Shown here piece by piece: positions 27,878-59,949 of a stretch of DNA of 64,000 nucleotides. The position numbers and the translations under genes were made by a program. The notes beneath the pieces were generated by a model. That model did no database searches. It was given only the letters and a program-made list of their open reading frames with translations, and was not told the origin of the DNA. How positions within the stretch are numbered: position 1 is the first letter of the stretch; each line of letters starts with the position of its first letter. Origin of the DNA: an uncultured Bacilli bacterium (GTDB lineage Bacteria > Bacillota_I > Bacilli_A > RF39 > UBA660); the NCBI GenBank assembly GCA_934130405.1, contig CAKOXX010000005.1, forward strand, positions 369 through 64,368. Reading direction: 5' to 3'.

Positions 27878-27902
27878 TAAATTTGTGATAGTATAAACAT
27901 TA

Positions 27903-28110
27903 AATCAATGAGAAGGAAGTAGTAAAAGATTAATAAAAGTAAAAGAGAGATTATGGTTGGTGTAAATAATCCTTTTATCCTTTGAATTCATCCTTTGAGT
28001 CTTAAAGCAAAACTTTAAGCGTTACTCGCGTTAAGAGATTAGAGTGTATAGAAAACTATAAAATAAGGTGGTACCACGGATATGTTTCGTCCTTAGTTTA
28101 TAGTTTTTCT
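27903..28110 (+). promoter_or_regulatory. T-box leader (Phe specifier UUC) with an intrinsic terminator
   Basis: The stem I start AATGAGAAGGAAGTAGTA and an AGAGAG box are present. The specifier context is GAAUUCA (UUC at 27987-27989). The T-box sequence AAGGTGGTACCACGG lies at ~28065-28079. The terminator is GAAAACTATAAA...TTTATAGTTTTC followed by a T-run (28051-28108). Downstream are a HAD gene, pheS and pheT. Confidence 0.75.
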
Positions 28111-49974: not shown

Positions 49975-51420
49975 ATGGTGAAGAAGAAAAAAGGGTTTAC
50001 ATTAGTTGAATTACTTGCAACTATTACAATTATGGGGTTAATTACTGTAATGGTAACACCATCTATTGTTAAGTTACAAGATAATAACAAGACAAAACAA
50101 TTTCAAATGTATGCTAAGAGTTTGGTTGAAGCTGCTAAAGTTTATGTCCAGAAAGAAGGAGAAGATATTACTCCCCTTGGTGTAGATGCGTGGCAAGGTT
50201 GTATTGAAATTAGTTATCAAGAATTAGCTACTAGTGATTTAGTTAAATCTTACGATGATACAGATTATGATTGTTCTGGTTCTAAGATACGTTATACAAA
50301 AACAAAGAGTAGTGGTAAATATACTTATCATTTAGTATGTAACTCAAAAGTTAGTAAAAAGAAAAACTACGACTTAAATACTATTCCAAATGCTGCTTGT
50401 AGTGTGGAATCGTTAAGCTGTACTCCAGGGGAGAATGCTGTTACCAAAATTACTAGTAAAGCTAATAGTGAAAGCTTAGATTATAATAGTGCTAATGCTA
50501 CTCAAAAGAAGGAAGTATGGACTTATTCAAAGAGTGCTACAACGCAACTTAAAGCTAATACTGAATACAGATATATTGGACAAAATCCAAATAATTATAT
50601 AAAATTTAATAATGAAATCTGGAGAATCATTGGAGTATTTGAAACTGATGATGGTACTGGAAAATATGAAAAAAGGTTAAAAATAATTAGGAATGAAGCT
50701 TTTCCTAAAGAACTTTCTTGGGACAATAAAAATGCTTCTACTGGGGCAGTCGATTACTATGGAAAAAATAACTGGGCTGATGCTAGACTTAATTATTTAT
50801 TAAATCCTAATCATGATAGTGAAACATATGGTGGAAGTCTCTACTGGAATAGAAAGTCCGGTAACTGTTATGCCGGAAGAGATAATGCTACTACTACCTG
50901 TGACTTTTCATCAATTGGACTTACTAACGTTTCAAAAGATTTAATTGGAAATGCCAAATGGTATTTGGGAGGAATAGGAGATTTTACTAGTTCTTCGAAT
51001 GGTTTAGCAACACATTTCTATACTAGAGAAAGAGAAACTTCAGTATACAGTGGTAGAAGTAGCAGTTGGATAGGAAAAGTTGGTTTAATGTATGTAAGTG
51101 ATTATGGTTTTGCAACAAGTGGAAATAGTTCAACTAATAGAGCTAGTTGTTTAAGAAAAGAGTTATATACTTGGAGTTATTCTACAGATTGTGTTAACAA
51201 TGATTGGTTATTTAATTCTACTTATCAATGTATGATTAATCCACGCTCCGATTCTCCAGGGATAGGTTTTCAAATATTTTCAGATGGTATTATTCGTGAT
51301 ATATCTAGTTATGTTACTTGTAATGTTCGACCAGTGGTTTATTTAAAATCATCAGTAGCTTTTAGTGATGGAGATGGAAGTAGTTCGTCACCTTATATCA
51401 TTGATGATTGTGAGGAGTGA
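49975..51420 (+). CDS. Large type IV pilin-like protein: prepilin N-terminus fused to a ~330-aa C-terminal domain
   Basis: The N-terminus is MVKKKKGFTLVELLATITIMGLITVMV. The C-terminal domain contains NNYIKFNNEIWRIIG...GLMYVSDY...VRPVVYLKSSVAFSDGDGSSSSPYII and resembles the C-terminus of the 55132 product. Confidence 0.75.
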   Translation: MVKKKKGFTLVELLATITIMGLITVMVTPSIVKLQDNNKTKQFQMYAKSLVEAAKVYVQKEGEDITPLGVDAWQGCIEISYQELATSDLVKSYDDTDYDCSGSKIRYTKTKSSGKYTYHLVCNSKVSKKKNYDLNTIPNAACSVESLSCTPGENAVTKITSKANSESLDYNSANATQKKEVWTYSKSATTQLKANTEYRYIGQNPNNYIKFNNEIWRIIGVFETDDGTGKYEKRLKIIRNEAFPKELSWDNKNASTGAVDYYGKNNWADARLNYLLNPNHDSETYGGSLYWNRKSGNCYAGRDNATTTCDFSSIGLTNVSKDLIGNAKWYLGGIGDFTSSSNGLATHFYTRERETSVYSGRSSSWIGKVGLMYVSDYGFATSGNSSTNRASCLRKELYTWSYSTDCVNNDWLFNSTYQCMINPRSDSPGIGFQIFSDGIIRDISSYVTCNVRPVVYLKSSVAFSDGDGSSSSPYIIDDCEE

Positions 51421-53823: not shown

Positions 53824-54818
53824 TGGTGTTGAACAATATTGCTTTTAATTCTGCCTTTGCTTCTGTTAATAAAGAATTGATGATAGAAATAGATGAAGTA
53901 ATTAATAAATATAATTTAATCCAAGAAAAAATGGATAAGATTAAACTAGATTATCAATTAAGATTTCAAGATTATTATGATGCAAATTTAACATATTCTG
54001 AGAATCTAGAATACTTTAAAGCTGTTTTTCCTAATTATGAAGATAAACACTTACTATTATTTTCTAAATATATTTTAGATAAAGAATTTGAGGATATTAA
54101 GATTATTTTAGAAGAACCTGAATATGGTGTGGATTATTTAATTGAATTAGTGGAAGAAGAAGGAATCTTAAGAAATGCTAAAGAGATAGTTAATTATATT
54201 GATGCTAATTCTATTAATAATAAAAACGATTTGAATGATGTTGTCAATTTATTTATACTTCCAAGTTATAATTCTGAGATTATAGAAGCATTGATGGAAA
54301 ATAATACTGGTAGTTCAGAATTATCTTTAAAAAAAGCAGGAAGTGCACTAAAGACGCTAATGAGTACTAGTTTTAACAGTCCAGAATTTTCTTCTAAGGT
54401 TCATAAAGTAATTGATAATTCTAGGGACCATGACGTAAAACTTACGTCAGAAGAAGTCCCAATGCAAAGATATAGTACGGGAAAATGTACAAAAGTCATG
54501 TTTTTTAAGTTACCGTTAAGTGATGAGAATAGAAATCACTTAGCTCAAGAATTTAATTCTGATAAGTTAGAAAATGTTTATTATATTGCAGGTTATGGTA
54601 ATTTTAAAGATAGTGGTTATTCTGAACCTGATTTTTATAGATTATTTTTGAATATGACATATTCTAATCAAGATGAGTTACAAAATGTTGTTGATGCTAC
54701 TTCTAATAGTAAAAAGTATCAAGAATTAGTTACATATATTAGGGCAAGTGAAGAGAAGCTTTCTAATTTAGTTTTTTGTAGTCAGAATGATACTAAATCT
54801 TCAAAAATTAGTAAATAA
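53823..54818 (+). CDS. Hypothetical protein (331 aa)
   Basis: A GTG start overlapping the preceding stop (TAGTG). I did not recognise a family. Confidence 0.45.
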   Translation: MVLNNIAFNSAFASVNKELMIEIDEVINKYNLIQEKMDKIKLDYQLRFQDYYDANLTYSENLEYFKAVFPNYEDKHLLLFSKYILDKEFEDIKIILEEPEYGVDYLIELVEEEGILRNAKEIVNYIDANSINNKNDLNDVVNLFILPSYNSEIIEALMENNTGSSELSLKKAGSALKTLMSTSFNSPEFSSKVHKVIDNSRDHDVKLTSEEVPMQRYSTGKCTKVMFFKLPLSDENRNHLAQEFNSDKLENVYYIAGYGNFKDSGYSEPDFYRLFLNMTYSNQDELQNVVDATSNSKKYQELVTYIRASEEKLSNLVFCSQNDTKSSKISK

Positions 54819-54845
54819 TATAAAATTTATTGGTAATAATAATTA

Positions 54846-54873
54846 GTGTTCAGATGTGATGAACACTTTTTTT
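54846..54873 (+). terminator. Rho-independent terminator
   Basis: GTGTTC-AGATGTGAT-GAACAC followed by TTTTTTT. Confidence 0.7.
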
Positions 54874-54877
54874 GATA

Positions 54878-55100
54878 TTGTTAAAAGTCAAGTATTATGA
54901 TATTATTAAGATGTCAAGAATACTGATATTTGATAAAAGATAAGAAGTAGGTGATTAGTATGTATCAAATGATTAAAGTTAACTATAAATTAACGTGGGG
55001 GGGGGGTACTTACTAATTTAAGAAAAAGACTTACTTTCTTTTATCATGGAATAAAGATAGATTAGATATCACTCGTAGTGGTATAAATCTATCTTTTTTG
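54878..55100 (+). promoter_or_regulatory. Leader copy 1: promoter, SD-sequestering long stem, mini-ORF with G10 tract, intrinsic terminator
   Basis: The promoter is TTGTTA (54878-54883), 17 nt, then TGaTATTAT (-10 at 54901-54906). The outer stem is GATAAAAGA (54932-54940) paired with TCTTTTATC (55037-55045), with further imperfect pairing. G10 lies at 54997-55006. The terminator stem is 55053-55063 paired with 55086-55096, followed by a T-run. Confidence 0.55.
54960..55016 (+). CDS. Candidate 18-aa leader peptide MYQMIKVNYKLTWGGGTY
   Basis: The SD AGGTGA lies 5 nt upstream of the ATG. The G10 tract encodes part of WGGG. The C-terminal 13 residues recur in copy 2 if one G is added there. Two of the nucleotide differences between the copies are synonymous (acg/act and tac/tat). 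Confidence 0.4.
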   Translation: MYQMIKVNYKLTWGGGTY

Positions 55101-55131
55101 TGTAATACTAAAATGAAAGGAACAAGTCTTT

Positions 55132-56991
55132 ATGAATAAACAAAAGTTTAAAAATATATTAACTATCGGAACAACCTTTATCTTACTAATTACTGTTATT
55201 GGTATCAGTTATGCTGCTTTTAATTACTCAGGAATAGGTCAAAAGTTGAATACCATTACGACTGGAGCAATTACGATGAATTATACAGAAAGCAGTAATG
55301 TCATCTCAATGAGTAATGCACTTCCCACCACAGATTCTACTGGAAAGAAAAGACTGAATTCCGGAGAATACTTTGATTTTACTATTAAATCATCAATCAC
55401 AGGAAATACAGATATCAACTATGAGATAGCAGCGAAAGAAGAAAATGGTAATACTTTTGATGGAAAGAATATCAAACTATATCTTACAAAAGTTAATTCC
55501 GATGGAAGCGAAGAAGAAGCGATGCCCCCAAAGACTTATTCAGAAGACCCAACCGGCAATGTTTATACAGGACGACCATCCGATATGATGAGTTTATTTG
55601 TAGGTAATCTTAATCAGCAAGGAGACACAGAAATAAAATATCGCTTAAGATTATGGGTAGATGAAAGTTATAATCCGCAGAGTGATAATGGAGGACTAGT
55701 ATATAAAGTAAAAGTAAATGTTTATGGACAAACTAGTGATACAGTAGCAGAAGTAGAGGATACCTATTGTAAAGATAATGGCTTTACTACTTTGTCGGAT
55801 TGTATGTTAGTAATGAATAATCACGAGACTTCTGTAGAGACTGCTAAACAAAATATAACTAACAAAGGAACACCAGACTTTTCTAAGACAGCCACGACTG
55901 ACGAAGGTTTATTTATGGCAGATGATGATGAAGGACCCAGTTACTATTATAGAGGAGCAGTCAAGAATAATTATGTATCATTTGCAGGATATACTTGGAG
56001 AATTATCCGTCGAAATGGAGATGGAAGTGTTCGAATGATTTATGCAGGGAAGAAGACAAGTGATACAGGTGAATCAACAATAATAGGTAAATCATCTTTT
56101 AATGAGAAATATTGGGATCCAACCTATGTAGGATATAAATATAATGAAAAATTTTCACTTCATGAAAATAGCGAAACAGGTTATGTTTGGTTTACCAATA
56201 CGCAAAAATACGATTTTGGAACAGGATATAACTTTGATGAATCAACAAAAAAATTTGTGTTAACAGGAACCATTAAGAAATTAACGTGGGAAGATAATCA
56301 TGATGAAATAGTATTAGGGAAACTATACAGCTGTTTAACTTCAAATTGTAACGCAGTTTATAAAGTGACAGAATATAAAAATGAAACACAAATGCAAGTA
56401 CAGCCGATTTCGTATAGTAGTGATAGTTATGAAGATGCAGTTACAAATAATACAAATTCAACTGTGAAAGATGTATTAGATACATGGTATAAAAATAATT
56501 TAGCAAGTTATACATCATATATAGCAGATGAAATATTTTGTAATGATAGAAGTTTAATAGACGGTTCAGGATATTTAATAACACCAACAACTTTTTATGG
56601 AACTTATCATCGTTTACGCGATAAAAAAACACCAAGCTTAAAATGTATACAAGATAATGATAAATTTAGAGTATCAAATACAAGTGCAAAATTAGATTAT
56701 CCAATTGCACTTATTACTGCCGATGAAGTTTCTATGGCAGGCGGAGTATATAATATAGCAAATAATAATTATTATTTATATAATGGACAATATTTTTGGA
56801 CAATGTCTCCATCTAAATTCACTTCTAATTATTCTCTTGCCGGAGCTTGGTATGTTATTCCTTCAGGTAGTTTACTTGATCACGGTGGCATTGTTGATCC
56901 TCGCGGTATCCGACAAGTTATCAATCTAAAGTCTAATGTCAAAATAACAAAGGGAGATGGAACAGCTTTGAATCCATTTACTATTAAATGA
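55132..56991 (+). CDS. Secreted 619-aa protein: SipW-type-like signal/N-terminal module plus a C-terminal domain shared with the 49975 pilin-like protein
   Basis: The N-terminus ...LLITVIGISYAAFNYSG...TGAITMNY resembles SipW-cognate (TasA/camelysin-type) signals. It also has YRLRLWVDE. The C-terminus contains NNYVSFAGYTWRII...IALITADEV...GIRQVINLKSNVKITKGDGTALNPFTI. Confidence 0.7.
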   Translation: MNKQKFKNILTIGTTFILLITVIGISYAAFNYSGIGQKLNTITTGAITMNYTESSNVISMSNALPTTDSTGKKRLNSGEYFDFTIKSSITGNTDINYEIAAKEENGNTFDGKNIKLYLTKVNSDGSEEEAMPPKTYSEDPTGNVYTGRPSDMMSLFVGNLNQQGDTEIKYRLRLWVDESYNPQSDNGGLVYKVKVNVYGQTSDTVAEVEDTYCKDNGFTTLSDCMLVMNNHETSVETAKQNITNKGTPDFSKTATTDEGLFMADDDEGPSYYYRGAVKNNYVSFAGYTWRIIRRNGDGSVRMIYAGKKTSDTGESTIIGKSSFNEKYWDPTYVGYKYNEKFSLHENSETGYVWFTNTQKYDFGTGYNFDESTKKFVLTGTIKKLTWEDNHDEIVLGKLYSCLTSNCNAVYKVTEYKNETQMQVQPISYSSDSYEDAVTNNTNSTVKDVLDTWYKNNLASYTSYIADEIFCNDRSLIDGSGYLITPTTFYGTYHRLRDKKTPSLKCIQDNDKFRVSNTSAKLDYPIALITADEVSMAGGVYNIANNNYYLYNGQYFWTMSPSKFTSNYSLAGAWYVIPSGSLLDHGGIVDPRGIRQVINLKSNVKITKGDGTALNPFTIK

Positions 56992-57019
56992 TACAAGTGA
57001 GGAAAGAGGTGCTTCGAAT

Positions 57020-58473
57020 ATGAAATCTAAGATTAATAAACAAAGTATATTTTTAATTATATTACTTGTGATATTGATATTTATTATTTTAAGAATGTCG
57101 TATGCATTTTTACAAACAAGTTTCTTTGCAAGTAATGATAATGTTTTAAAAGTAGCTAGTTTAGCACTTGTATTAGATGAGTCAGAAGGTAATGCGATAA
57201 CAGTATCAGCAGATGGACCGTTATCAGATAGTGAAGGTGTTAATTTAAATAATTACTACTCATTTAAATTAACTAATAATGGAAAAGTAGCATCTTCGTA
57301 TACAATATATTTAGATAATCAACCACTTGATGATGGAGATGTAAGGATTGACCAGAAATATGTTCACTATAGTTTAGAAAAAGATGGTTCTAATAATGTT
57401 GCTAAGTCACTAACTGGAGAACAAAAACTAGAAAGTGGAATAATAAATAGTAAACAAACTATCAACTATAAATTAAGATTATGGTTTTCAAGTGATATGA
57501 CAGCTGAAGAAGAAAATAAAGTCTTTAAAGCAAAACTTAGAATAGAAGCTAGTCAAAATATTAATGCTATGGCATCATCTCTTAAACTTACCGATGAAGA
57601 AAAACAAACAATTACTAAGATAGTATTTCAGGATAAAATAAATGATATAGAAAACACTACTAAGAGTTATGATTTATCAGCAAATGATAATAATAGTGTT
57701 ATTGGCAAAATAGTATCTAATGGCGATAGTACAAATACTTTATATATCCAAAGTAATGGGGAAATATTTGCTAATAGTAATTCTAGTTACCTATTTAACT
57801 ATTTTACCGAACTAAAAACAATAGAAAATTTAACTTTGTTAAATACCTCACAGGTTATAAATATGTCACACATGTTTAGCAATTGTAAAAGTTTATTAAA
57901 TATTGATTTAAGTAACTTTGATACATCTAAAGTTGCTAATATGAATGGTATTTTTAGTATGTGGAATAAAACGGATGATGCTGCTAGTACTGGTAGTTTG
58001 ACTTCATTAAATTTAAGAAGTTTTGATACAAGTAAAGTTACTAATATGTATGATATGTTTGCATATAATAAAAATTTGGAAGAATTAAATATAAGTAGTT
58101 TTAATACTGAAATGTAATAAATATGGCTTTTATGTTTACAAATTGTATTAAGTTAAGTAGTATTGATGTTAGTAATTTTAATACTAGTAGTGTAGTTTAT
58201 ATGCAAAATATGTTTGGCAGCTGTAAAAGTTTAACTTCTTTGAATCTAAGTAGTTTTGATACTTCGAATGTAAATTATATTAAAGAAATTTTTTATAATT
58301 GTGAAAAATTACAGAGTATAGACTTAAGAAAGGCAATTTTTACAAAAATTTCAAATTATGATAGTATGTTTTATGGTGTACCGTCTGATATAAACATTAT
58401 TACTAAAGATGTAATAAATAAATCTTGGTTAGAGGATAGATTAAATGGAAAAGGAACAGTTACTATTGGTTAG
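57020..58473 (+). pseudogene. Secreted BspA-type leucine-rich-repeat protein split by a 1-nt frameshift in an A-run
   Basis: It appears as two ORFs, 57020-58117 and 58123-58473. Reading gaaAatgtaataaatatggct with one extra A gives ...FNTENVINMAFMFTNC, which exactly continues the LRR periodicity (F.TS.V.NM..MF..C..L). Confidence 0.7.
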
Positions 58474-58490
58474 ATATTTTGATAAATATA

Positions 58491-58708
58491 TTGAGATACA
58501 AAAATAGTTGTGATAAACTTAAATTATCAAAAGTAAAGAAAGTAGGTGAGTAATTATGAATATGTGTTTTAGGAATGATTACTCACTTTTTAAGTCTAGA
58601 AAAGTTAACTCAAAATTAACTTGGGGGGGGGTACTTATTAAGTAATAAACCTACTTTCTTTAATAGTGTAAAAATAATAGAATAGGAAAAAACTTATTCT
58701 GTTTTTTT
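58491..58708 (+). promoter_or_regulatory. Leader copy 2: promoter, perfect 14-bp inverted repeat covering the SD, mini-ORF with G9 tract, intrinsic terminator
   Basis: The promoter is TTGAGA (58491-58496), 17 nt, then TGaTAAACT (-10 at 58514-58519). The inverted repeat is TAAAGAAAGTAGGT (58534-58547) paired with ACCTACTTTCTTTA (58649-58662). An inner hairpin pairs 58546-58554 with 58578-58586. G9 lies at 58623-58631. The terminator spans 58679-58708. Confidence 0.55.
58556..58645 (+). CDS. Candidate leader peptide, copy 2 (29 aa as sequenced: MNMCFRNDYSLFKSRKVNSKLTWGGVLIK)
   Basis: The SD AGGTGA lies 6 nt upstream of the ATG. With G9 the frame exits as GGVLIK*. With G10 it would end KVNSKLTWGGGTY*, matching copy 1. 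Confidence 0.35.
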   Translation: MNMCFRNDYSLFKSRKVNSKLTWGGVLIK

Positions 58709-58740
58709 GTGCTGTTTAAAAAAATGAAAAGAGGTAAAAA

Positions 58741-59949
58741 ATGAAAAAGGGACAAAATATATTTTTAGTTATATTATTAGTAATATTGATATTTATTATT
58801 CTGGGAATATCATATGCGTTTTTACAAACAAGTTTCTTTGCAAGTAATGATAATGTCTTAAAAGTAGGAGACTTATCGCTTGTATTAGATGAATCGGAAG
58901 GTAATGCGATAACTGTATCAGCTGATGGGCCATTATCAGATAGTGAAGGTGTTAATTTAGATAATTACTACTCATTTAAATTAACTAATAATGGAAAAGT
59001 AGCATCATCATATACAATCTATTTAGATGATCAACCACTAGATGAAGGTGATGTTAGAATTGACCAGAAATATGTTCACTATAGTTTGGAAAGAGATGAT
59101 TCTAATAATGTTGCTAAGTCTTTGATTGAAAGTCAAAAACTAGAAAGTGGAATAATTAATAGTGGACAAACTATTAACTATAAATTAAGATTATGGTTTT
59201 CAAGCGATATGACAGCTGAAGAAGAAAATAAAGTCTTTAAAGCAAAACTTAGAATTGAAGGAGCATCAACTAGTGAAGAAGGGTTAAATAAAAAGTGTCA
59301 TAGTGTTGGAGGAGATTATTACGTAGATGGAGAATGTAGAAAATATTATGTAATGAAAAATAATATAGTGGATATGGAAAATGTTTCATTTGGAAACGAA
59401 ACTGATGGTAATAAAATAAATCATAGCTATGATGCAATATCTAAAACTTGGACAGTTAGTTATACAGGAAGTAATAAATGGTTTGGAACTTATATAACTC
59501 CAACTCTTGAGTATGTTAAACATCTTTATTATGGATATTATGAGTCGAGTTGTCATTCAATAGATGGAAGAGTGGAATTCTATACTTATAATAGTAATCC
59601 TATATATCCTGCCATTAATGTTTCAAAGTTAAATGATAATGCTTATTCCTACTATTATAGTTTAATAGACGATATAGATATAAATAATATTACAAGTTAT
59701 GGTCCTTATCTTCAATATAATGGCTTTCCAATTACTACAGAGTTATCACCAACGTATACTTTAAATAATTATATGATAATTGACTTAACTTTGATGTTTG
59801 GTGAAGAAAATGAACCAAGTAAAGAATGGTGTGATAAGAATTTAACTAGTTATATAGAATATAATGAAAGTGGAGTAAAGGCTCCTATTAGTGATATAAA
59901 CTATACTGGTAAGACTAGTTATTATGATGTAATATCAATGTATAAATAG
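58741..59949 (+). CDS. Secreted 402-aa protein sharing the ~175-aa N-terminal module of the 57020 gene, with an unrelated C-terminal domain
   Basis: The N-terminal part, roughly nt 58741-59262, looks about 90% identical by eye to 57020-57553. It contains ISYAFLQTSFFASNDNVLKV and YKLRLWFSSDMTAEEENKVFKAKLRIE. Similarity ends abruptly after RIE. Confidence 0.7.
   Translation: MKKGQNIFLVILLVILIFIILGISYAFLQTSFFASNDNVLKVGDLSLVLDESEGNAITVSADGPLSDSEGVNLDNYYSFKLTNNGKVASSYTIYLDDQPLDEGDVRIDQKYVHYSLERDDSNNVAKSLIESQKLESGIINSGQTINYKLRLWFSSDMTAEEENKVFKAKLRIEGASTSEEGLNKKCHSVGGDYYVDGECRKYYVMKNNIVDMENVSFGNETDGNKINHSYDAISKTWTVSYTGSNKWFGTYITPTLEYVKHLYYGYYESSCHSIDGRVEFYTYNSNPIYPAINVSKLNDNAYSYYYSLIDDIDINNITSYGPYLQYNGFPITTELSPTYTLNNYMIIDLTLMFGEENEPSKEWCDKNLTSYIEYNESGVKAPISDINYTGKTSYYDVISMYK

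Follow-up and report, generated by a model that had tools for sequence, protein, structure and literature searches.

The closest described systems are the pil1 and pil3 loci of Streptococcus gallolyticus, in which changes in the number of GCAGA repeats lengthen a leader peptide and the ribosome translating it destabilises a premature terminator (Danne et al., 2014, PLoS Pathog, PMC3894217). Expression is low when the leader stops at least 28 nucleotides (nt) upstream of the hairpin and high when it stops within or after it (PMC3894217). Here, two homologous leaders are described in a stretch of 64 000 nt of an uncultured Bacilli bacterium (the window; GenBank contig CAKOXX010000005.1, positions 369 to 64 368). 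They lie 5' of the surface-protein genes starting at 55132 (copy 1) and 58741 (copy 2), and each contains a short open reading frame (ORF) with a long run of G. Each G tract is likely to be a slipped-strand contingency switch within a ribosome-dependent transcription attenuator. As far as comparison of sequences can tell, one-base slips in the run probably switch the surface-protein genes on and off at random. This reading is carried by the anatomy of the leaders, the conservation of the tract, its length polymorphism in near-identical alleles, the dependence of the stop on the frame and the covariation of the terminator. We infer that the leader is translated and that its long frame is the ON state, as well as the role of a long-range stem and the rate of switching. 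A first-pass annotation of this DNA had proposed a contingency locus acting through a leader peptide; such a locus is not without precedent, having been shown experimentally with pil1 and pil3 (PMC3894217).

The whole window was scanned for runs of at least eight G or C. Only two were found, a G10 in copy 1 and a G9 in copy 2, exactly at the positions that had been given for the sole long G runs. Shuffled sequences led to an expectation of 0.03 such runs per window, the G+C content being 28%. Both runs are inside a block common to the two leaders, AAAGTTAACTnnAAATTAACnT-Gn-TACTTA...ACnTACTTTCTTT, and occupy the same place of the conserved leader ORF, as the first-pass annotation had noted; the mini-ORFs also had the limits described there. 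From 5' to 3', each leader comprises a candidate promoter, a purine arm holding the Shine–Dalgarno sequence (SD) of the leader ORF, the ORF itself with a conserved block and the tract, a stop-codon-rich spacer, a pyrimidine arm able to pair with the purine arm (this long-range stem is called P1) and an intrinsic terminator (Table 1). The U tail of the terminator is separated from the structural ATG by 32 nt in the leaders, and the structural SD is also in this gap. The structural genes must therefore be transcribed through the hairpin, since the gap leaves no room for a separate promoter. A classical poly-G locus, with the tract in the gene or in its promoter, was considered and discarded: the tracts are downstream of the candidate promoters, in a separate ORF, and end 125 nt (copy 1) and 109 nt (copy 2) upstream of the structural ATGs. 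The European Nucleotide Archive (ENA) assembly ERZ27287188, from the same strain (contigs L001 and L002), has identical G9 and G10 tracts and may share the reads of the window, so that the lengths at both sites may still reflect homopolymer error.

Related leaders were collected by two routes. In the protein route, the N-terminal 174 amino acids of the 402-residue protein encoded downstream of copy 2 gave 23 relatives, and the alignment of these led to 14 loci in species-representative genomes, all of them uncultured 'Bacilli bacterium' metagenome-assembled genomes or Clostridium sp. CAG:451. A DNA-pattern scan of metagenome contigs gave about 50 further leaders, nearly all from human-gut assemblies. 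The total was 63 pattern matches; one of them (L102) was inside a long ORF and was not a leader, which left 62 leaders. Tract lengths over all 63 matches, L102 counted, were G7 (6), G8 (10), G9 (34) and G10 (13). Among the 12 protein-route genes with upstream sequence, a sample that is unbiased for the tract, 10 carried G8–G10, one had a degenerate tract and one had no leader. Several leaders were present per assembly, and the leader family spans lineages with about 60% protein identity. The GTTWAC-N6-TTAAC block that abuts the tract was among the most invariant positions of the leader across the family.

The same scan also returned an unrelated locus of about 46% G+C, on Ga03079xx contigs, with G-run variants of its own. 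It read TTAATGT-G11-TTCGCTCC in some contigs (L023, L063, L068 and L108) and TTAATGT-G7-TGGTTTTCGCTCC in others (L024, L027, L032 and others).

An SD and an ATG followed by an ORF open up to the tract were found in 59 of the 59 leaders with scorable upstream sequence. The SD is AAGTAGGTG-like and located 6–9 nt before the ATG, in both window copies and across the family, and the leader ORFs have lengths of 15–45 codons in an AT-rich background. The block is read as ...KVNxKLTWGG... in one clade and, one frame over, as ...SLQLVNMGGG... in another, and single indels switch individual leaders between these readings (L069 and L080). Since the same nucleotides are read in two frames and the peptide itself is not conserved, it is translation across the tract, as judged from the alignment, that is conserved, not the peptide product. 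A functional mini-peptide was rejected on these grounds, the peptides being unlike in length and sequence.

Every leader had at least one frame stopping soon after the tract and at least one running on, nearly always into the terminator. Exactly one frame was open through the pyrimidine arm in 48 of 55 non-identical leaders, two frames were open in the other 7, and zero or three in none (0/55). The closed frames stop no more than 19 nt after the tract, often through a recurrent TTAAGTAA by which TAA arises in two frames. The stop of the long frame was listed for 38 leaders; it was in the 5' half or the loop of the terminator (33 leaders), in its 3' half (4 leaders) or 9 nt beyond the hairpin (1 leader). 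The arm is read as TTFFY in most subfamilies and as NYFLL in the L062/L078 type; because its reading frame differs between subfamilies, these alignments point to the position of the ribosome rather than the peptide as what matters. As assembled, 14 leaders were in the long frame and 45 in a short one.

The GGG run occurs in either of the two frames that the family uses, and GGG represents only 20 of the 225 Gly codons in the ORFs of the window. In a classical codon-sensing attenuator, two or three consecutive rare GGG codons would stall the ribosome according to the supply of Gly-tRNA or another translation stress and so set the read-through. The controlled genes, however, encode surface proteins and not glycine metabolism. 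No conserved antiterminator was found for a ribosome stalled on the tract, the pairing of the copy 1 arm with its terminator being absent in other subfamilies, and a stall 20–30 nt before the arm would leave the terminator uncovered. This explanation is extremely improbable.

To define alleles, leaders with flanks at least 95% identical were grouped, which gave 13 groups of two or more members. The tract length differed within 7 of the 13 groups, and 6 of these 7 toggled between the short and the long frame. In the clearest pair, L103 (G7, short) and L123 (G9, long), which were from two different human-gut assemblies, one single-nucleotide polymorphism (SNP) and a 2-nt gap in the tract were the only differences over 3864 nt (99.9% identical background). 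L038 (G10, short) and L100 (G9, long) differed by one SNP and a 1-nt gap over 557 nt. Relatives of the copy 1 type had G8 (L076 and L114) or G9 (L056 and L064).

Illumina homopolymer errors are well known. If real tracts had been miscalled in length, the G9 and G10 of the window included, there would be no switching at all; a contig coverage of 1.3–5x and the equal lengths in the window and in the strain's other assembly are in line with such an artefact. It is nevertheless very improbable. Differences of 2–3 nt were found on otherwise identical backgrounds (L103/L123, L081/L109 and L034/L052), the G7–G10 spread was seen over about 60 independent assemblies made with different assemblers, and a G run is costly at 28% G+C, so that its maintenance in lineages sharing about 60% protein identity speaks for selection acting on the tract itself.

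Two leaders without a tract were found, and both are fixed in a long frame ending inside the terminator. In L009 (3855–3941), GTGGG replaces the tract after a deletion between the block halves, and the downstream gene is an intact ORF of 478 amino acids. In L078 (reverse strand, about 2429–2533), AGCACAGGC replaces it; the downstream gene was checked at its N-terminus, which is the family anchor. From their sequences, both are candidate locked-ON alleles.

The terminators were identified by folding and covariation. In an alignment of 22 diverse leaders, compensatory changes were present in 8 of the 10 consensus stem pairs. The copy 1 terminator has a predicted energy of -18.4 kcal/mol (z-score -5.8) and the copy 2 terminator one of -9.5 kcal/mol (z-score -4.6); in both, the 3' strand of the hairpin runs into the U tail (U6 and U7, respectively). 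P1 can form in 33 of 33 representatives, with a mean of -14.4 kcal/mol. In copy 1 the duplex reaches -17.8 kcal/mol, and its 5' arm is the same in all leaders of the family. The role of P1 in the leader is deduced from this conserved complementarity and would be to close the leader SD. The first-pass annotation had described a stem sequestering an SD; the stem does cover one, which belongs to the mini-ORF itself and not to the structural gene. By fold, the stop-to-arm distances are 12 nt in copy 1, for which about 21 nt had been reported, and 3 nt in copy 2, close to the 4 nt or so given earlier.

Part of these data could also be explained by a structured leader RNA, riboswitch-like or bound by a protein, that senses a physiological signal. 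The G tract would then be a structural or binding element with neutral length differences, and might for instance compete with the leader SD for the CUUUCUUU arm, in a way that somewhat recalls the poly-G/pyrimidine pairing of Bacillus subtilis pyrG. The block and the tract are indeed conserved at the nucleotide level whatever the reading frame, the P1 stem is conserved, full-leader folds have z-scores of -3.9 and -5.5, and in 22 of 22 sequences RNAalifold joined the tract to CUUUCUUU in the arm (2 G–C and 6 G–U pairs). The paired columns are invariant, however, and thus devoid of covariation signal, and folds of single sequences favour P1 and leave the tract unpaired. With Rfam 15, no leader matched at the gathering score; in the region 54700–58800, a search extended to E = 10 gave only chance-level matches (E of at least 2). 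Variation from 7 to 10 nt between near-identical alleles is unexpected for a structural element, the two leaders whose tract was replaced kept the long ORF and not a G-rich element, the SD and ORF were kept in every scorable leader, and the arm is outside the terminator, unlike in pyrG. A sensing RNA of this kind is improbable.

Alternative pairings were also considered. A possible copy 1 antiterminator, formed by the arm and AAAGAUAG in the terminator's 5' half, was dropped, since the pairing is absent in other subfamilies. Inspection across subfamilies revealed no conserved 2:3 antiterminator, the only pairings of the consensus fold being the terminator and that of the G tract with the arm. 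When the full copy 1 leader is folded, its arm binds the region of the structural SD (55100–55128) and not the leader SD, a pairing seen in copy 1 and not in copy 2. In read-through transcripts, the copy 1 arm may thus, according to this fold, also mask the main ribosome-binding site.

The preferred attenuator model would operate as follows. Transcription would start at a promoter about 50–80 nt upstream of the leader ATG. A ribosome would load onto the leader SD (AAGUAGGUG, within the purine arm), follow the RNA polymerase and translate the mini-ORF through the G tract, whose length modulo 3 would determine which of the three frames is read after it. In two frames, a stop would be met within 19 nt and the ribosome would be released before the pyrimidine arm. 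The arm would then pair with the leader SD in P1 and close it, the terminator would form about 30–45 nt further on, and the operon would be OFF save for basal read-through. In the third frame, the ORF would stay open across the arm and end inside the terminator hairpin; with a ribosome on the 5' strand of the terminator while the RNA polymerase is at the U tract, termination would not occur and the surface gene would be transcribed (ON). A lineage would move between these states when replication adds or removes one G, and several leaders per genome would give a stochastic mix of surface-protein variants. That the long frame is ON is deduced by analogy with S. gallolyticus pil1 and pil3 and from the fixation of the long frame in the alleles without a tract.

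Applied to the window, the model predicts the following states. In copy 1, the assembled G10 and the lengths G7, G8 and G11 give the short frame, and G9 and G12 the long one (a 34-residue peptide ending in LTFFYHGIKID). In copy 2, G9 (assembled), G10, G7 and G12 are short, and G8 and G11 are long. The short stops end 36 nt (copy 1) and 30 nt (copy 2) before the terminator hairpins; both leaders are therefore predicted, by the S. gallolyticus rule, to be in OFF frames, each one G deletion away from ON. The first-pass annotation had proposed that a tract in the leader ORF sets where ribosomes stop relative to the terminator and gives stochastic control of the surface genes. This central claim is strongly supported by the comparative evidence: G7–G10 is kept in about 60 leaders, near-identical alleles vary in length and the stops depend on the frame. 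The contrast between G9 and G10 in copy 2 on which it dwelt is one between two predicted OFF states, in which the leader ORF stops short of the arm and at least about 30 nt ahead of the terminator; the state predicted to matter is the third frame. Recomputed translation agreed that one extra G in copy 2 gives ...TWGGGTY followed by a stop; the direction of the shift of the copy 2 stop was right, and its size is 4 nt, not 5, relative to the downstream sequence. The comparison of tract lengths that it had suggested yielded differences among related leaders and the same G9 and G10 in the assemblies of the window strain.

The frame could also be heterogeneous by non-genetic means. RNA polymerase slippage or ribosomal frameshifting would then bring a constant share of the ribosomes into the long frame in each cell and give graded instead of ON/OFF expression, which could coexist with DNA slippage. 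G GGG GGG is formally a slippery heptamer, and long homopolymers are sites of transcriptional realignment and frameshifting; transcriptional slippage is, however, efficient mainly on A/T runs and not on G runs. No conserved stimulatory structure was found downstream of the tract at a spacing typical of frameshifting, and the length polymorphism in DNA already supplies a switch, which makes this explanation decidedly improbable. Taken together, the explanations other than the slipped-strand switch are less consistent than it is with the length polymorphism, the conserved SD and ORF, the frame-dependent stops and the locked long alleles.

Several points weigh against the slipped-strand switch. 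A tract-length difference within the strain of the window was not found in exact-protein look-ups, in which the other assemblies possibly derive from the same data, and for the organism of the window we infer both switching and its effect. At the coverage of most metagenome contigs given above (1.3–5x), some of the one-G differences may be consensus errors. The pattern of one open frame is only modestly non-random (P about 0.03 against shuffled spacers, with 7 independent spacer clusters), because AT-rich spacers easily hold stops and the arm is stop-free by composition; as sequence evidence it is consistent with the switch rather than decisive. No significant covariation of P1 was detected when the duplex energies of cognate and non-cognate arms were compared (P = 0.06), the two pairing almost equally because the arms are so conserved. 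A simple terminator scan, which requires at least three G–C pairs, called neither leader terminator, as such pairs are few here. Nor does the model explain why the nucleotide sequence of the block preceding the tract is conserved. Finally, ribosome–RNA polymerase coupling is reported to be weak in Bacillus subtilis; a still hypothetical pause would therefore be needed.

The block could signal a pause, bind a protein or provide a context for slippage. Its hairpin is marginal (-0.8 kcal/mol in copy 1 and -2.2 kcal/mol in copy 2). In an extension of the model that must be regarded as doubtful, the GTTWAC-N6-TTAAC block and the tract would form a dedicated module, either a pause signal or a DNA site tuning or targeting slippage, and would constitute with P1 a self-timed, one-ribosome, heritable attenuator in a multigene family. 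The weak hairpin and a 9–10 bp rG:dC hybrid would hold the RNA polymerase until the pioneer ribosome arrives, and P1 would close the leader SD after one round of translation. If this were true, ribosome-dependent antitermination would be workable in a Bacilli-type organism with poor coupling, and at least four independently switching copies per genome would provide an opa-like combinatorial coat for uncultured gut Bacilli.

Table 1. Elements of the two leaders and genes predicted to be under their control (window coordinates).
Feature	Position	Strand	Basis or remark
Copy 1 candidate sigma-70 promoter, TTGTTA, 17 nt spacer, TG-n-TATTAT	54878-54906	+	Consensus scan alone
Copy 1 overlapping alternative promoter	54872-54901	+	Consensus scan
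Copy 1 P1 5' arm (UGAUAAAAGA..AAGUAGGU), holds the leader-ORF SD	54931-54952	+	Fold of 54925-55100
Copy 1 leader ORF, 18 amino acids, MYQMIKVNYKLTWGGGTY-stop; short frame, predicted OFF	54960-55016	+	Translation, fold
Copy 1 conserved block GTTAAC-N6-TTAAC, directly 5' of the tract	54978-54994	+	Conservation; weak hairpin
Copy 1 G10 tract, candidate slippage site	54997-55006	+	Scan for runs of at least 8
Copy 1 stop-codon-rich spacer	55007-55028	+	Between tract and arm
Copy 1 P1 3' pyrimidine arm (ACUUACUUUCUUUUAUCA)	55029-55046	+	Fold; TTTCTTT core invariant in the family
Copy 1 intrinsic terminator, 11+8 bp hairpin 55053-55096, U6 tail 55094-55099	55053-55099	+	Fold
TAG ending the copy 1 leader ORF at G9 or G12; predicted ON frame	55063-55065	+	In the 5' half of the terminator stem
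Genes predicted under copy 1 control: 619-residue membrane-anchored protein (55132-56991) and DUF285/PARCEL-repeat surface protein	55132-58473	+	
DUF285/PARCEL-repeat surface protein gene, two ORFs split by a frameshift	57020-58117 and 58123-58473	+	
Copy 2 candidate promoter, TTGAGA, 17 nt spacer, TG-n-TAAACT	58491-58519	+	Consensus scan alone
Copy 2 P1 5' arm (UAAAGAAAGUAGGU), holds the leader SD	58534-58547	+	14-bp helix with 58649-58662
Copy 2 leader ORF, 29 amino acids, ...KVNSKLTWGGVLIK-stop; short frame, predicted OFF	58556-58645	+	Translation, fold
Copy 2 conserved block/hairpin AAGUUAA-N7-UUAACUU	58602-58622	+	Fold
Copy 2 G9 tract, candidate slippage site	58623-58631	+	Same length in contig L001
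Copy 2 stop-codon-rich spacer	58632-58648	+	Between tract and arm
Copy 2 P1 3' pyrimidine arm (ACCUACUUUCUUUA)	58649-58662	+	Fold
Copy 2 intrinsic terminator, 11-bp hairpin 58676-58703, U7 tail 58702-58708	58676-58708	+	Fold
TAG ending the copy 2 leader ORF at G8 or G11 (...WGGYLLSNKPTFFNSVKIIE-stop); predicted ON frame	58683-58685	+	In the 5' half of the terminator stem
Gene predicted under copy 2 control: 402-residue protein with the family N-terminal anchor and domain	58741-59949	+	

The copy 1 promoter candidate directly follows the terminator of the preceding gene (54845–54867). A second contig of ERZ27287188 (L002) is equal to the window over 7314 nt except for three SNPs, at 54985, 54986 and 54995 (within 7163–7174 of L002), all in a 12-nt stretch that abuts the copy 1 G tract on its 5' side (TAT to TTA and ACG to ACC). 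This contig ends exactly 141 nt (the k of the assembler) past the last SNP and looks like a de Bruijn bubble of two haplotypes. Its variant 19-mer is the block of a paralogous leader type (L052), and because of this match the SNP patch suggests a short gene conversion between leaders. A mimic of a tRNA anticodon loop and a target of a diversity-generating retroelement, considered for the 7-nt hairpin loop in view of the SNP cluster, were both rejected: the block matches that of the paralogous leader L052, and the substitutions are not confined to A positions.

Almost all leaders of the family precede the same N-terminus, composed of a basic stretch, a transmembrane helix, a G(I/M/V)SYA(F/A/L) motif and a beta-rich domain. 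The C-termini of the downstream proteins are variable, DUF285/PARCEL surface repeats being among them. Over 510 nt at their 5' ends (57040–57548 and 58752–59260), the second gene of operon 1 and the copy 2 gene are 90% identical, and their C-terminal halves are unrelated. The family is thus cassette-like, its members having the N-terminal anchor domain in common, and is a likely substrate for recombination and cause of assembly breaks. What splits the DUF285/PARCEL gene is a frameshift of 1 nt in a short run of A, which reads gaaatgtaa in place of the gaaaatgtaataaat expected from the repeat consensus. Contig L001 has this frameshift too, and the A run is not a long homopolymer; the gene is either a pseudogene or the product of an error. 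Among homologues of a sister clade, P0016 reads FALKKNNG and its relatives FAL-KNNG, and P0021 and P0023 start at MLLKNNG, which suggests a second frameshift-prone A run within the coding sequence of some family members.

Elsewhere in the window, a 481-residue protein is encoded upstream of the leader-controlled genes (49975–51420, + strand); it bears an N-terminal cleavage/methylation motif of the prepilin type, and its length would be unusually great for a pilin. A T-box leader (27899–28097, + strand; Rfam RF00230, 112.7 bits, E = 4e-24) is consistent with a Firmicutes/Bacilli origin of the window.

The family offers about 60 natural alleles in predicted ON, OFF and locked states, in uncultured human-gut Bacilli without genetics. 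Tract length modulo 3 would constitute a sequence-only rule for the prediction of expression states from metagenomes, and homopolymer-bearing leaders are to be considered as spots of unstable assembly and annotation. P1 and the block may show how ribosome-dependent antitermination is timed under loose transcription–translation coupling.

The window leaders can be compared first with the poly-G loci of Campylobacter, Neisseria, Haemophilus and Helicobacter. They share with them a run of G7–11 in an AT-rich or host-adapted genome, strain variability, a link with the cell surface and a frameshift switch. In those loci, the tract is either within the structural gene (often where the signal peptide is encoded) or in a promoter spacer; in the window, it is in a separate leader ORF of 18–29 codons about 110–125 nt upstream, and would act by way of transcription termination instead of truncating the product.

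In Escherichia coli pyrBI, a ribosome translating through the attenuator physically prevents formation of the hairpin. As in pyrBI and in the trp and his attenuators, a leader ORF is followed here by an intrinsic terminator. The signal of those systems is metabolic (pausing dependent on uridine triphosphate, or the supply of charged tRNA) and reversible in the cell, whereas that of the window family would be a heritable change of frame. A sensing attenuator of the trp/his/pyrBI type was set aside, as no conserved 2:3 antiterminator was found and the operons encode surface proteins.

In Clostridioides difficile cwpV, a phase-variable 5' leader forms or does not form an intrinsic terminator, according to a site-specific inversion of DNA by a recombinase. 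The window family resembles cwpV in having a terminator-based leader ahead of a Firmicute surface-protein gene, whereas cwpV has neither a leader ORF nor a homopolymer. In B. subtilis pyrG, poly-G is added at the 5' end of the RNA by reiterative transcription and pairs with the pyrimidine strand of the terminator. Antitermination of this type was rejected for the window, where the tract is encoded by the template and internal and the complementary CUUUCUUU is the P1 arm, outside the terminator.

A search of the literature for other attenuators with a homopolymer in the leader found none beyond Danne et al. (2014). The elements of a pil1-type attenuator are all present in the sequence: a simple sequence repeat in a leader ORF, an SD and ATG of its own, a terminator before the operon and a stop whose position is set by the frame. 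Like pil1 and pil3, the window family has the repeat in a short leader ORF, then an intrinsic terminator, then genes of surface structures; gain or loss of the repeat would shift the frame between short and long stop positions, and more than one locus is present per genome. The repeat itself is different, a G homopolymer (G7–G10) in place of 13–23 copies of GCAGA. Usually only one frame of three is long here, whereas both out-of-frame states of pil1 are long. The window family adds a long-range stem predicted to hide the leader SD and an invariant 19-nt block by the tract. The two groups have no sequence similarity, and the hosts here are uncultured low-G+C gut Bacilli in which the leaders form a multigene family. 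The genes predicted to be controlled encode membrane-anchored proteins of the DUF285/PARCEL type, unlike the sortase pili of S. gallolyticus. Phase variation by a leader-peptide attenuator has so far been shown in one species, at two loci; the present leaders would be a second, unrelated and much larger family, which suggests that the device may be a general Firmicute route to randomised expression of surface proteins. At the level of sequence, the window family matches the logic of the pil1/pil3 leader-peptide phase-variation attenuator, with a homopolymer replacing GCAGA.

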